From Eledone cirrhosa (Eukaryota), in the NCBI GenBank assembly GCA_964016885.1, contig CAXHJY010000320.1, forward strand, positions 34,367 to 98,366: DNA of 64,000 bases, read 5' to 3'. Both the position numbers and the translations under genes were made by a program. The notes under the pieces are model-generated. The model made no database searches, had not been told where the DNA came from, and was given only the letters and a program-made list of their open reading frames with translations. How positions within the stretch are numbered: the first letter of the stretch is position 1; the number at the start of each line of letters is the position of its first letter. Positions 961 through 54,169 of the stretch are shown here, piece after piece.

Positions 961-1706
961 ATACATTATGAAGAGAGAAGAAACATTTAGATATAATTAG
1001 TAATAAAATGTATCATACCTAAACTGTTCCTAAATTCCTCGACTACGTAGTTTCGTGGCATAAACAAAAACAATATATCAAAGATATAGAGTCCTTGCGA
1101 GGTCTGCCAACTTATCAAGAGGATACCTCATTTTACTAGTCTCAAGAACGCGTCTACACGACGTGAGAAAGAATCCCAAAAGGCGGAGGGGGAGATAGTC
1201 ACGCGATATAACGGTCGAGAAACAGAGCTAAGCCTCTTATAACCACGAAAAAAATACCACGGAGGCGGAGGGGGTATTCATATCGAGGCCGTAGAAGAGG
1301 TAGTGAAGAAGGCGAGAAGTATGAGTAATGGAAGCTTTCCAGTTGTCCCCACACCTCAAAGATTGCTCGACCAGAGGGAGTTATTAATACATTTAGAAAC
1401 ACACAGATACATGCGGACACACACATATATACATGAATGCATCCGCACCCAACTGTGAGTTAAGGGTGCCAACTTCACCGATGTTGCTCAATGAATGACT
1501 GGGACAGACCAATTCAGTTTGAACCAGACTGAACCAGTATCAGAGTTAAAAATACATTATGAAGAGAGAAGAAACATTTAGATATAATTAGTAATAAAAT
1601 GTATCATACCTAAACTGTTCCTAAATTCCTCGACTACGTAGTTTCGTGGCATAAACAAAAACAATATATCAAAGATATAGAGTCCTTGCGAGGTCTGCCA
1701 ACTTAT
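961..1706 (-). mobile_element. Retrozyme/Penelope pLTR-like element: 591-nt unit plus 155-bp direct repeat
   Basis: 961-1115 identical to 1552-1706; contains hammerhead; TA flanks; no ORF. Confidence 0.75.
1036..1123 (-). ncRNA. Type I hammerhead ribozyme, U3:A8 core variant
   Basis: Minus: tcctc-TTGATAA-gttggca...tgccac-GAAA-ctacgtag-TC-gagga; 5-bp helix I, palindromic helix III, GUC site. Confidence 0.8.
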
Positions 1707-1954
1707 GTATATATATATATATATATGTATATGTATATATGTATGTATATATATATATATATATATATGTATATATATATATATATATATGTATATATAT
1801 ATATATATATATATATGTATATGTATATGTATATATATATATGTATATATATATGTATATGTATATATATATATATATATGTATATATATATATATGTAT
1901 ATATATATATATGTATATATATATATATGTATATATATATATATATATATGTAT

Positions 1955-3850
1955 AAGCATGTTCTACAACGTGAGGACCAAAAACGTGAGGTGTTCAGGA
2001 TTGCTAGGCAATGTGTCAAGGAAAACAGTGATATTGTCGGGGAGAAGTGTGTACTTAACAATGACGGCGTACTTGCCATCACCGACAAGAAGGTAGCTTG
2101 GAAGTGTCACTATGAAAGGCTACTAAATGAGGAGAATAAATGGGAGAAAGACAGTCTCCCCCACATCGACCCAATAGAGGGACCAGCAGTGTTAGTCGAG
2201 GGTAGTATAATAAGTAAGGCAATCAAAGATATGAAGACAGGCAAGGCGGCTGGGCCTTCGGAAATAGTTGCCGAGATGCTGAAGGTATCTGGTACGGTGG
2301 GACACACCATGGTCACCTGGATAGTCAACCAAGTCATACAGAATGGGGTTGTTCCGAAGGACTGGCGTAGCAGCATTATCGTTAACTGTTATAAGGGTAA
2401 AGGAGATGCCCTAGATAGGAGTAACTATAGAGGCATTAAATTAATCGACCAGGTCATGAAGGTCACGGAAAAAGTAATAGTGCAACTAATCAGAGAGCGA
2501 ATTAATCTAGATGAAATGCAGTTCGGGTTTGTGTCAGGCAAAAGTACCACAGACGCTCTTTTCATAGTACGACAACTACAGGAGAAGTACCTAGCTAAAG
2601 GTAAACCCCTCTACTTAGCTTTTGTCGACTTGGAGAAACCCTTCGACAGAGTCCCCCGCTCCATTATCTGGTGGGCTCTTAGAAAACTAGGTGTTAACGA
2701 ATGGCTTGTGAGGGCTATACAAGCCATGTATAAAGAAACAGTCAGCAAGGTTAGAATTAACAACGAATATAGTGAAGAGTTTAGCGTAAAAGTTGGCGTC
2801 CATCAGGGCTCTGTTCTCAGCCCCCTACTATTTATTATTGCCCTTCAGGCTATAACAGAGGAGTTCAAGACCGGCTGCCCATGGGAACTCCTATACGCAG
2901 ACGACCTGACACTCATAGCTGAATCAATGGCCGAGCTAGAGAAGAAATTCCAAACATGGAAGCACGGCCTAGAGTCAAAAGGACTTAAAATTAACCTGGC
3001 TAAGACTAAAGTTCTAGTTTGTAGGAAAGAAAACAAGGCGGCGGTCCCTTCTGGGAAATGGCCGTGCTCGGTGTGTAGGAAAGGCGTAGGTAGAAACTCC
3101 ATTTTATGTCCTAAATGCAAAGTATGGGTGCATAAAAGATGTAGTGGGATCACAGGTAAGCTAACTAAGAACATAGATTTTACATGTGGCCGGTGTTCTG
3201 GTGCAATAAGTAGCAGCAAGTGCCCACAAAATACTAGCTCTTTCAATTGCGCAGAGGGCTCTATAGAAATAGTGGACAGCTTCCGTTACCTGGGTGATAA
3301 AATCAGCAGTGGGGGAGGGTGCTCTGAAAGTACAGTAGCTAGAGTCAGAACTGGTTGGAAAAAGTTCAGAGAGCTTATACCACTATTAGTTGCTAAAGGG
3401 TTCTCCCTAAAAATAAAAGGCAGGTTGTACGATGCCTGCATACGAACAGCAATGTTGCATGGCCGTGAGACCTGGGCATTGTGTGCAGAGGATATACGCA
3501 GACTAGAGAGGAACGAAGCTTGCATGCTCCGCTGGATGTGTAACAGTAATATACGTGAACGGCAAAGCATAAATGAACTAAGGAAAAAATTAGAGATAAG
3601 AGGGATCAGATGTTGTTTACTCGAGAGAAGGCTACGTTGGTATGGACACGTGATGCGCATGAAAGTCGATAGCTGTAGAACAAAGTGCAGGGCAATAAAG
3701 ATAGACGGTAGCCATGGAATAGGCAGACCTAGAAAAACCTGGGACGAGCTGATAAACTCCGACCTCACACACTTACACCTCTCCAAGACAATGTCACTGG
3801 ACCGAGACCATTGGCGGTACTCAGTAACAGAGAAGACCCGCCTTACCTAA
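1955..3850 (+). CDS. RTE reverse transcriptase, partial (the ORF-track start in TA is spurious)
   Basis: [42 protein letters not shown]-like Cys cluster, [16 protein letters not shown]. Confidence 0.9.
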
Positions 3851-4306
3851 ATACAAAGTAAAAACCTACTACAGTCAGTAGGCATCTCTATCAACCCCCC
3901 CCCCCCCCCCCATGTTGGTCCCACAACATCCAGGCCGAAACAAATGAGATCGTGTAGGTGTCACGACAAAAAAACACACAGTCCACGCTGTAAATGTGGC
4001 CGTGTAGGCAACACGGTAAAAACGTCCCAGCCCCACACTGTGAATGTGGTTGGTGTTAGGAAGGGCATCCAGCTGTAGAAAACCCGCCAGACAGTCCACG
4101 CTGTAATGTGGCCGTGTAGGCAACACGGTAAAAACCTCCCAGCCCCACACTGTAAATGTGGTTGGTGTTAGGAAGGGCATCCAACTGTAGAAAACCCGCC
4201 AGACAGTCCTATGCGAGCAAGACAACCACTCTTGCCTCAAGTGGGAAAACCCCCGTCCAAACCCATGCAAGCGTGGAACACGGACGCTAAACCTGATGAT
4301 GATGAT
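1955..4306 (+). mobile_element. RTE-clade LINE, 5'-truncated, with 3'UTR and (GAT)n tail
   Basis: RT ORF; 3'UTR with AGGAAGGGCATCC motif; ends AAACCTGATGATGAT; near-identical to 48541-50818. Confidence 0.93.
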
Positions 4307-51234: not shown

Positions 51235-51468
51235 TGGAGTCTAAAAGACAACCACACCCAATATAAGTTACACTGGGAGATCCTAGCTAGGGCTAGATCG
51301 TATAACGGAAATAAAAGACCATGTGACCTCTGCGCCGCTGAGGCCCTGGAAATACTCTACGCCACAGACCACATCTTAAACAAAAAATCTGAGGCAATTT
51401 CGGCTTGTAAACATAAATTGCACAAAACTTTCCTGTATTACAGCCCTACGTTATACCCTAACGGATAG
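51235..51468 (+). pseudogene. Penelope-like GIY-YIG endonuclease C-terminal fragment
   Basis: WSLK..WEILARARSY..CDLCAAE..I..LNKKSEAISACKH matches the PLE W.LK/W.I/CxLC..E/LNKRSE..CRH pattern. Confidence 0.8.
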
Positions 51469-52391
51469 CACGATCTATACGTGGATATACGTCTTGATGT
51501 GGGAGCTAAGTATATGTTTTGTTTATTCCTTTACTTTTTGCATAGGTAAGTATATATTACCCGTATGTTTTGTGAAGGTATGTATACCTTCTCGTACGTA
51601 TATTTGACTGTTTTGGCGTATCATTTTTACATATTCTGGTATTTAGAGCTTGGTTATGGGTATATGGGAGTTTTGCGTCTGCGTGAGTATGCAGGTTCGT
51701 ACGTATGGTGGGTGTGTGTATATGTGTACTTCTTGTTTTAGTTGACTTACGTCTCCGAACCTTCATATATTTATTTGTAGGTATGTGTGTGCGCTTGTTA
51801 TATATGTATTTATTTACTTATATACGTTTATATAATTATTTATTTATTTGTACACAAGCATACACACATACACATATTTATATGTGCGTGGTTTTGTATA
51901 CCTATGGTAAGGTTTTGCGTATGCTTGTGTATGTACGTATCTGTTTGCGTGTATGTATTTATTTGTTCCTATTACTTCTGCATTGTATTTATTTACTTTG
52001 TTCTTAACTCTGTAGCAGAGATTCATTCGGTCTCCTAGTTAGATTTTTAGTCTATGACTTCTGCTATACCATTTACGTGGATTTGTCTTTGCACGCTGTT
52101 GTTCTCCACGCTCCACATATGACTTATTATCTTCGTTTTTTCGTTCATTGCCAGAGAACGTCTCTATGCACCACTTAGAGAACATTAGTCTACGACCTCT
52201 TTTATACCATAAACGTGCTTCTGTCCTTGCACGTAATTGTTTTTCACCGCTCCTATTAATGACGTATTATTCGTTTTTTCCCGTTCTTTGCCAGCGAACG
52301 TCACCATGAACTAAAGTATCGTCTTCCTGTCTTCCTCCGGTTGCAACGTTTTTTGAAATATCCAGTTCTGCGTTTACAGATTGACTTTGTT

Positions 52392-52441
52392 AGTTTCAGA
52401 AGATCCCGTTAAGGGTGAAAGCAGCGATTCTTTGCTTAAAC
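52392..52441 (+). ncRNA. Hammerhead-like motif, U4A variant (mirror copy at 51073-51123 on -)
   Basis: agttt-CAGAAGA-tccc gttaa gggt-GAAA-gca..tgc-TT-aaac. Confidence 0.55.
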
Positions 52442-54169
52442 ATTAATAAATATAATATATATATATATAATATATATAATATATAATATATATATATATA
52501 TAATATATATATAAATATATATAATATAATATATAATATATATAATATAATATATATAATATTATATATATAATATATAAATATATATATATAATATATA
52601 TATAAATATATATAATATATATATATAAATATATATAATATAATATATATATATATATAATATATATATATAAATATATATAATATAATATATATATATA
52701 TAAATATATATATATAAATATATATATAAATATATATAATATAATATATATATATATATATATAATATAATATATATATATAAATATATATATAAATATA
52801 TATATAATGTAATATATATATATAAATATATATATAAATATATATATAATATAATATATATATATAAATATATATATAAATATATATATAATATAATATA
52901 TATATATAAATATATATATAAATATATATAATATAATATATATATATAAATATATATATAAATATATATAATATAATATATATATATAAATATATATATA
53001 AATATATATATAATATAATATATATATATAAATATATATATAAATATATATAATATAATATATATATATAATATATATATAAATATATATAATATAATAT
53101 AATATATATATATAATATAAATATATATAATATAATATATATATATAAATATATATATAAATATATATAATATAATATATATATAATATAAATATATATA
53201 ATATAATATATATATAAATATATATAATATAATATATATATATATTATATATATAAATATATATAATATAATATATATATATAATATATATATAAATATA
53301 TATAATATAATATATATATAAATATATATAATATAATATATATATATAATATATATATAAATATATATAATATAATATATATATATAATATATATATAAA
53401 TATATATAATATATAAATATATATATATAATATATATAAATATATATAATATAATATATATATATAATATATATATAAATATATATAATATATAAATATA
53501 TATATATAATATATATATAAATATATATAATATATAAATATATATATATAATATATATATAAATATATATAATATATAAATATATATATATAATATATAT
53601 ATAAATATATATAATATATAAATATATATATATAATATATATATAAATATATATAATATATAAATATATATATATATTATATATATAAATATATATAATA
53701 TATAAATATATATATATATTATATATATAAATATATATAATATATAAATATATATATATATTATATATATAAATATATATAATATAATATATATATAAAT
53801 ATATATAAATATATATATATAATATATATATAAATATATATAATATATAAATATATAATATATATATAAATATATATAATATATAAATATATATAATATA
53901 TATATAAATATATATAATATATATATATATATATAATATTTATAATATATATATAATATATATAATATATATATATATAATATATTATATATATAATATA
54001 TATATATATATAATATATATAGATTTTGAGTTTATGTTGGTTGTATACCAACACCTCAGTATGCAGGCTGGAGCACTCAACGAAGTGCGCAGGTTGGTTT
54101 GGTTACTCCGGAGTAGTGTAAAATAAAGTTAAATAAAAGTCAAATGATTAAAATTTAGCTTCGTTTATT

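Follow-up and report, generated by a model that had tools for sequence, protein, structure and literature searches.

The window analysed here, a 64,000-nucleotide (nt) stretch of the Eledone cirrhosa genome (contig CAXHJY010000320.1), has a GC content of 27%, and its long (TA)n tracts are packed with nested insertions. Among these are the inverted, tandem and truncated copies of hammerhead-bearing families listed in Table 1, together with part of the open reading frame (ORF) of a Penelope-like element (PLE) of the Hydra clade. A first-pass annotation had noticed in these inserts a short bulged hairpin, which it proposed to be a cis-acting RNA signal for recognition or initiation by reverse transcriptase (RT). 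We followed this hairpin through the window, through a sample of the 3.0 Gb genome (119 stretches of 10 kb at fixed positions, 1.19 Mb, two of which adjoin the contig of the window) and through an environmental set of 78 Hydra loci in 64 clusters, 33 of them eligible for counting. The hairpin occurs twice per leader, as copies termed SL1 and SL2, and insertion ends lie just upstream of either copy; a cis-acting RNA signal is the best-supported reading of these data, with RT binding as its putative basis. Statements on PMC8557442, PMC3846280, PMC11167929, PMC7229834, PMC13282606 and PMC4209133 refer to the covered parts of these papers.

The hairpin follows the consensus RCUC-stem-UN-GAGY-(RCU). 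A strict scan (RCTC, at least three further pairs, a 2-nt 3' bulge and GAGY) gave 13 matches in the window, against a mean of 3.85 and a maximum of 9 in 60 local shuffles, and bulges of 0, 1 and 3 nt gave 9, 8 and 7 matches against about 4, a clearly smaller excess. The ten sites cited in the first-pass annotation all read as listed, and eight of them are among the 13. In the genome sample, where about 25 sequence families bear the hairpin, 101 of the 210 matches with a 2-nt bulge end 20-100 nt before (TA)n; the upstream side gives 37 of 210, 1-nt bulges give 11 of 83 and 3-nt bulges 15 of 76. The distance of 40-75 nt to the element end that had been proposed describes eight sites of the window, which lie 41-71 nt from (TA)n, and fails for those at 46630 and 1486, internal copies at 686 and 522 nt. 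Regarding the two sites that had been called weaker, the one at 51002-51046 forms a single pair followed by T-T, and the one at 29339-29364 passes the strict rule but belongs to family A, like that at 36963.

Full-length leaders are arranged in the order hammerhead, SL1, SL2, ATG. First, SL1 was found in 33 of 33 eligible environmental clusters, 36-67 nt after the hammerhead (shuffled mean 1.7, maximum 7; L295, L340 and L341 are mis-picks), and SL2 in 30 of 33 by rule, or about 28 once two re-picks of SL1 (L319, L334) are removed, some 55-85 nt downstream of SL1 and a short way ahead of the ATG, with several further mis-picks among these rows. Second, in five host families the ATG follows SL2 at a distance of 22-65 nt, and the spacing between the copies is 55-165 nt overall (78-165 nt in host families with mapped ends). 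Third, matches to the motif in the environmental loci have a density per 10 kb of 25 in leaders, 4.8 after ORFs and 0.12 within ORFs, and of at most 1.0 on the antisense strand. Family F1 provides a complete leader with all four parts (L398), and full-length copies of family F0 have SL2 and a Hydra ORF. The position downstream of the hammerhead that had been claimed for the hairpin is borne out for A, B, F0, F1, F3, F64 and G when each is taken as a family, and is doubtful in F10.

Insertion ends, mapped in 21 reference families, are of two kinds, namely, a short end 3-9 nt before SL1 and a long end 3-9 nt before SL2. Long ends fall 35-99 nt after SL1 in the 21 families, 17 of which also have short ends just before SL1, and five ends lie inside or just after a hairpin; the long-end count of F13 and an upstream cluster in F4 are artefacts of a microsatellite or of the reference edge. 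Modal junctions are at -6 to -3 for the long ends of B and F0, -6 to -5 for the short end of B, -8 to -5 for the short end of F0 and both ends of G, -9 to -5 for the long end of F10 and -8 to -6 for that of F9, and two informative (TA)n junctions among seven environmental rows are at -2 to SL2 and -3 to SL1. Thus, the offset to the hairpin is fixed while the SL1-SL2 spacing varies. The geometry differs from that of the 3' stem-loops of LINEs, with which an analogy was first drawn, since the informative distance is the fixed one upstream of two copies and not the variable 35-99 nt downstream. In copies that read through the long end, SL2 appears 5-13 nt beyond it in five of five families (B, G, F10, F7, F14), and its presence, predicted beforehand, was then found in nine of nine read-through copies of F0, three of three of F9 and five F1 leaders among nine listed rows.

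The ends are also combined in a regular manner. Inverted insertions with one short and one long end make up 134 of 137 cases, and 58 of 60 in an untargeted sample, against 50% expected from end frequencies; no RNA-editing barcodes common to both arms were found in 119 inverted pairs. As the ends lie just upstream of SL1 and of SL2, the known 'tail' of PLEs, often seen at one end only (PMC8557442, PMC3846280), corresponds to the interval between two hairpin-adjacent ends. Terminal repeats lose SL2 at long ends and both hairpins at short ends. The hairpins might instead serve translation or RNA-protein packaging only, with adjacent AT-rich patches setting the ends; the short distance of SL2 to the ATG in five host families and the location of junctions within TAT/ATA patches would fit this. 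However, the non-coding families G and F10 retain both hairpins at the same offsets, many other TA patches of the leader are unused, and the offset stays fixed despite the variable spacing, which makes such a role very unlikely as the whole explanation.

Table 1. Hairpins, hammerheads and PLE insertions in the window.
Feature	Position	Strand	Remarks
Type I hammerhead, family G, U3-A8 core	1035..1122	-	element end ~963, 5-8 nt before expected next SL1
SL2 hairpin, family G, A-C at base	1365..1381	-	165 nt after SL1; absent from first-pass annotation
SL1 hairpin, family G internal copy, A-C at base	1486..1546	-	non-coding tandem, 591-nt unit
SL1 hairpin, family A type	29339..29364	-	within inverted insertion 29276-29493, long + short end
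Inverted insertion of family A in (TA)n, with the short end on the left and the long end on the right	36653..37052	+	
Hammerhead core + stem II, family A	36858..36888	+	mirror copy 36713-36743 (-)
SL1 hairpin, family A	36963..36990	+	62 nt to (TA)n
SL1 hairpin, family F0	37214..37237	+	inverted insertion 37089-37285; only 3' half of hammerhead kept
SL1 hairpin, family F1	40322..40341	+	64 nt to (TA)n; copy 5'-cut, hence no hammerhead
SL1 hairpin, family F10 internal copy	46630..46655	+	non-coding tandem, 615-nt unit, spans 46578-47334
SL2 hairpin, family F10, long inner arm	46736..46837	+	106 nt after SL1; absent from first-pass annotation
SL1 hairpin, family F10 terminal copy	47245..47270	+	insertion ends 71 nt on, 5-9 nt before expected SL2 start
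SL1 hairpin, family F3	47431..47449	+	
Family B Hydra-clade PLE insertion (by sequence motifs)	50960..52454	+	inverted long end left, short end right
SL1 hairpin, family B	51002..51046	-	41 nt to (TA)n
Hammerhead variant core CAGAAGA..GAAA, family B	51095..51118	-	second copy 52397-52420 (+)
Hydra-type GIY-YIG endonuclease, C-terminal part (CxxC, CxH)	51235..51447	+	
SL1 hairpin, family F64	54075..54114	-	53 nt to (TA)n
Hammerhead core + stem II, family F64	54183..54219	-	

A rescan of the genome sample that did not select for pairing yielded 80 clusters, of which 77 were used after removal of three at stretch edges. Watson-Crick pairing holds at pair 5 in 38 of these, at pair 6 in 40 and at pair 7 in 36, against 22.7, 21.5 and 21.9 in shuffles, counts that are not of independent events, given that the clusters are mutually related and that, in a few cases, one family is seen again in antisense. 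Where the first bulge base is T, the basal pair is matched in 23 of 26 multi-copy clusters (16 A-T, 7 G-C; shuffled 14.5), this subset having been picked after the data were seen and its clusters being related, so that the shuffle values are no probabilities of independent events; no pairing excess is seen among 33 control clusters with another base at the start of the bulge. The switch of the basal pair between A-U and G-C, which had been noted, is thus seen across clusters, and the site at 1486-1546 departs from it with an A-C mismatch. The 2-nt bulge, in turn, is U-N and not always UU, as had been supposed: in the 33 environmental clusters it reads TT in 23, TC in 6, TA in 3 and CT in 1. 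In the same clusters the RCT after GAGY is kept (ACT in 29), pair 5 of SL1 is T-A in 17 and C-G in 13, and the basal pair is G-C in 31. The covariation that had been suggested for the upper stems is therefore present in host and environmental sets alike without selection for pairing, and the hairpin is tied to hammerheads as well as to element ends. On the sense strand, G-U outnumbers A-C by 12 to 1 within the helix. Such sense-strand folding argues against the antisense self-priming idea (PMC3846280) for the Hydra clade, and is compatible with RNA and with sense single-stranded DNA alike.

That the motif is a relic of shared ancestry without a present role, or else a protein-bound palindrome of double-stranded DNA, would agree with its confinement to one clade and with the CTC/GAG core, which is invariant and so without covariation. 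Yet flanks and loops cannot be aligned, inner pairs change on both sides, the spacing of the arms ranges from 5 to about 90 nt and the carrier proteins are about 40% identical; covariation and the mixed-end counts largely refute this explanation, which we consider extremely improbable.

Model-based searches added little. Rfam at the gathering score returned one weak tRNA and no hairpin family in the whole window; at E up to 5, the best 150 of 279 matches in the window were mostly of microRNA type on TA runs and inverted arms, and six environmental loci gave no match at E up to 10. Our covariance model R1 was weak, with a best E of 0.0004 in the window and the sites at 1486 and 51002 missed; the 30 loci searched with it were preselected known carriers, and one alignment test was fitted to the structure. 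MAFFT placed five of 21 hairpins out of register, and the alignment left after dropping them (A4, 16 rows) is selected for pairing, biased and not relied on. Several hairpins are closed by UUCG or GNRA tetraloops, SL2 of family B being C-UUCG-G (L181 leader; L080:4712-4731; L301; L286). In many families GAGY and the following RCTC form a near-palindrome, GAGYRCTC, at the 3' flank of SL1 and SL2, which could permit strand exchange or SL1-SL2 pairing. An identity with SECIS elements was rejected, there being no AUGA/AA pattern.

Contrary to the first impression of unrelated families, every hairpin family that we could tie to an ORF (A, B, F0, F1, F7, F9 and F17) is, judged by its protein motifs, a Hydra-clade PLE, and these carriers are homologous; a convergent origin of the hairpin was accordingly rejected, its carriers being one clade. 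G and F10 consist of non-coding units in tandem, and F3 and F64 have no established ORF link. The Hydra clade of C-terminal endonuclease-bearing PLEs was described by Craig et al. 2021 (PMC8557442), with DKT, a CxCX5C linker, and CxxC and CxH in the endonuclease as its marks. The insertion of family B ends an ORF; this family is young and very large, with 49,740 candidates. Its protein (L181), a frame of 741 codons, has an RT (YRDD at 350) followed at the C-terminus by a GIY-YIG endonuclease (YIG at 602), with DKT at 119 in place of DKG, CNCRNRADC at 568, CDLC at 666, CKH at 694 and, near the N-terminus, RWR at 41, a conservative variant of RWK; it starts with KNIP, as do the published Hydra-1_Obim and Hydra-1_Ajap proteins compared by eye. 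A Pfam search of this protein gave no match, and its homologues carry PF26215. Family A is linked to a Hydra-type ORF via the inverted arm of L020. Hammerhead cores occur in A, B, F64 and F1. In F0 (L372 leader) and G, U3-A8 replaces C3-G8, a compensatory core variant missed by standard patterns. Insertion ends adjoin (TA)n.

Published sequences extend this picture. The motif is perfect in three of six new Hydra consensi examined by eye (Hydra-2_Amil from a coral, Hydra-1_Ajap and Hydra-2_Ajap from a sea cucumber), a near match in one and absent from two, and the Hydra-1_Ajap consensus has both hairpins, 61 nt apart. A limited search of the supplement of Craig et al. with six 9-mers returned the hairpins of three Hydra elements and three unrelated internal sites in Naiad/Chlamys files. 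The hairpin is not a general PLE signal. One non-Hydra PLE family of the same genome (window 29532-30100 (-); L114, L117, L123, L019) has two alternative ends of its own, lacks an RCUC hairpin and provides a natural control for seeking the signal of another clade. In the terminal arms of a Neptune-like family (L111, L112, L116) we observed a GAGC..GCTC/ACTC stretch, in reversed order, about 130 nt from the end.

Taken together, we think it probable that the hairpin is a sense-RNA signal that positions the RT about 5 nt upstream, and that it is used twice per insertion; that the RT binds Hydra hairpins and initiates there is what the sequences suggest. Insertion could proceed as follows. First, the GIY-YIG endonuclease would nick both strands of (TA)n. 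Second, each hairpin would dock one RT on the sense RNA, with the start site about 5 nt upstream of it, and cDNA would be primed by one nick before SL1 and by the other nick before SL2 of the same RNA, probably with two protein subunits; TA identity of 1-4 nt at the junctions may assist, although PAc, an element discussed below, needs none. Third, both cDNAs would extend toward the 5' end of the RNA and then be joined head to head, the tail being what lies between the two start sites. Whichever hairpin sets a start would itself stay uncopied, which would account for the loss of SL2 or of both hairpins from terminal repeats, and the full signal would be kept by tandem or leader-containing RNA alone. 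In its strongest form, this amounts to programmed twin-priming by an RT dimer on two hairpins of one RNA, each subunit primed by one nicked strand, which by itself would give rise to the tail, to inverted arms joined head to head and to the mobilisation of partners that code for no protein; we give this form about an even chance. A circular or tandem template, as proposed for PLEs (PMC4209133), would also fit the data.

Two other mechanisms would place the ends where they are. In one, the hairpin is an RNA-processing signal for cleavage, or for the formation of a 3' end, some 5 nt upstream, with the RT priming at the resulting RNA ends. It explains fixed offsets and sense-strand folding equally well, and RNA-seq reads of a Poseidon element end on start sites (PMC11167929); cut RNAs used independently, however, would also give long plus long and short plus short insertions, in conflict with the 134 of 137 mixed ones, and Poseidon initiation is internal, on intact RNA (PMC11167929), so that we hold processing to be unlikely. 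In the other, the hairpin acts in sense single-stranded DNA, of the second strand or a resolution intermediate, and guides end trimming by the GIY-YIG endonuclease. The endonuclease of Drosophila Penelope needed the tail for DNA recognition (as cited in PMC11167929), the tail has been attributed to resolution by the endonuclease (PMC8557442), and neither G-T wobbles nor UUCG/CGAA loops tell RNA from DNA. Against this, long ends lack SL2, so DNA reaching SL2 would first have to be synthesised and later discarded at each insertion, just five ends lie inside or directly after a hairpin, and tail ends coincide with RT starts in vitro (PMC11167929); we regard an action in DNA as likewise unlikely.

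The closest experimental parallel to a hairpin that positions the RT is PAc, a Poseidon element of Anolis (Frangieh et al. 2024, PMC11167929), in which RT initiates internally in an AC-rich stem loop. PAc, a predicted dimer, cuts both strands of AT-rich DNA, and in vitro two internal RT starts bound the tail on both target strands, with RNA 3' of the main start being required. Both systems have two tail-bounding sites downstream of the hammerhead, RT starts in PAc and insertion ends here. PAc was studied as one family with no conserved or covarying motif, and neither a duplicated signal nor a one-of-each rule was found in the covered parts of that paper.

Several observations weigh against the proposed role of the hairpin. 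Besides the choice of the T-bulge subset with the data in view, the basal pair is A-C in seven and G-U in none of 93 hairpins, some of which are mis-picks, although family G is A-C in both copies; at helix ends G-U and A-C are similarly frequent (11 versus 8); folding energy has no strand preference, the sense strand being lower in 39 of 93; and the bulged form appears in the predicted fold of just 54 of 93. SL2 frequently has a single pair above the bulge (pair 6 is paired in 14 of 30), L342 and L346 lack SL2, L319 has a single hairpin, and SL2 is degraded in L112, an old F1 read-through copy. F10 has no short ends among 25 ends. The two non-Hydra PLE families examined in the same genome have two kinds of end and no such hairpin. 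Finally, PAc differs from Hydra PLEs in that its start lies inside the stem loop, within the ORF and at a site that shares no homology with the target; its stem-loop sequence, too, is without the RCUC/UN/GAGY motif.

Other RNA signals offer partial likenesses. The 3' stem-loops of LINEs and SINEs (UnaL2, R2 3' UTR) are single hairpins located 5' of the start site and copied into every insertion. They resemble the present hairpin in acting in cis and in being common to autonomous and non-coding partners, with reading by the RT proposed here; it differs in lying 3' of the end it marks, in remaining uncopied and in being present twice, and so does not qualify as a LINE-type signal. In the epsilon element of hepadnaviruses and the template-positioning stems of telomerase RNA, a bulged stem holds the RT at a fixed template register, and the RTs of PLEs and of telomerase are sister groups. 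The likeness is one of architecture, with no likeness in sequence claimed, and priming here would differ in being by nicked target DNA. In this sense the hairpin is a candidate for a template-positioning element serving the RTs most closely related to telomerase; if programmed twin-priming holds, a portable motif of about 20 nt would set the start site of a telomerase-related RT.

Hydra PLEs as published (PMC8557442) and the families of the window have in common the protein motifs, the hammerhead, the (TA)n target, partial tandems, an inverted 5' copy and a tail at a single end, with tails of 55-165 nt here and 30-40 nt there. The main text of that paper contains neither 'stem-loop' nor 'hairpin', and its covered parts yielded neither an RNA motif other than the hammerhead nor a second copy or a link to the ends. 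G and F10, non-coding tandem units in hammerhead-type arrays, are like the metazoan non-LTR retrozymes of Cervera and de la Pena 2020 (PMC7229834), from which they differ in carrying Hydra hairpins and, for G, PLE-type inverted ends; in the covered text of that paper no signal for recognition by an RT is named (zero counts for 'stem-loop' and 'bulge'), and 'hairpin' and 'stem-loop' likewise count zero in that of PMC13282606. In keeping with the first-pass annotation, no earlier description of the hairpin was found in the literature covered, which leaves out most subscription papers and Repbase reports, nor was the placement of both tail borders before copies of one hairpin found in print. A short duplicated motif at a fixed offset makes the choice of start site, the one-end tail and the inverted arms of PLEs, a question of two decades, directly testable. 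It also serves as an annotation marker for Hydra elements and their non-coding partners, at a rough estimate of 75 hairpin-bearing ends per Mb in the sample.

As for the remaining features of the window, family G (971-1698 (-)) is very young, with dozens of copies 99-100% identical and arrays of at least five units with inverted arms. In F10, a hammerhead-like core at 47026-47058 (+), 186 nt before SL1, contains one additional base (CTGATAGA..GAAAC). Pieces that we take, by their motifs, to be LINE ORFs (RTE-like, CR1/L2-like), together with a presumed tRNA-like SINE head, lie in (TA)n at 1961-3850 and 47552-50442 (+), 6177-8164 (-), 62986-64000 (+) and 38975-39032 (-). Last, a 55-nt stub of F3 at 58080-58134 (-) joins the tail 3' of GAGT to a hammerhead piece, the 5' arm of its hairpin being gone.

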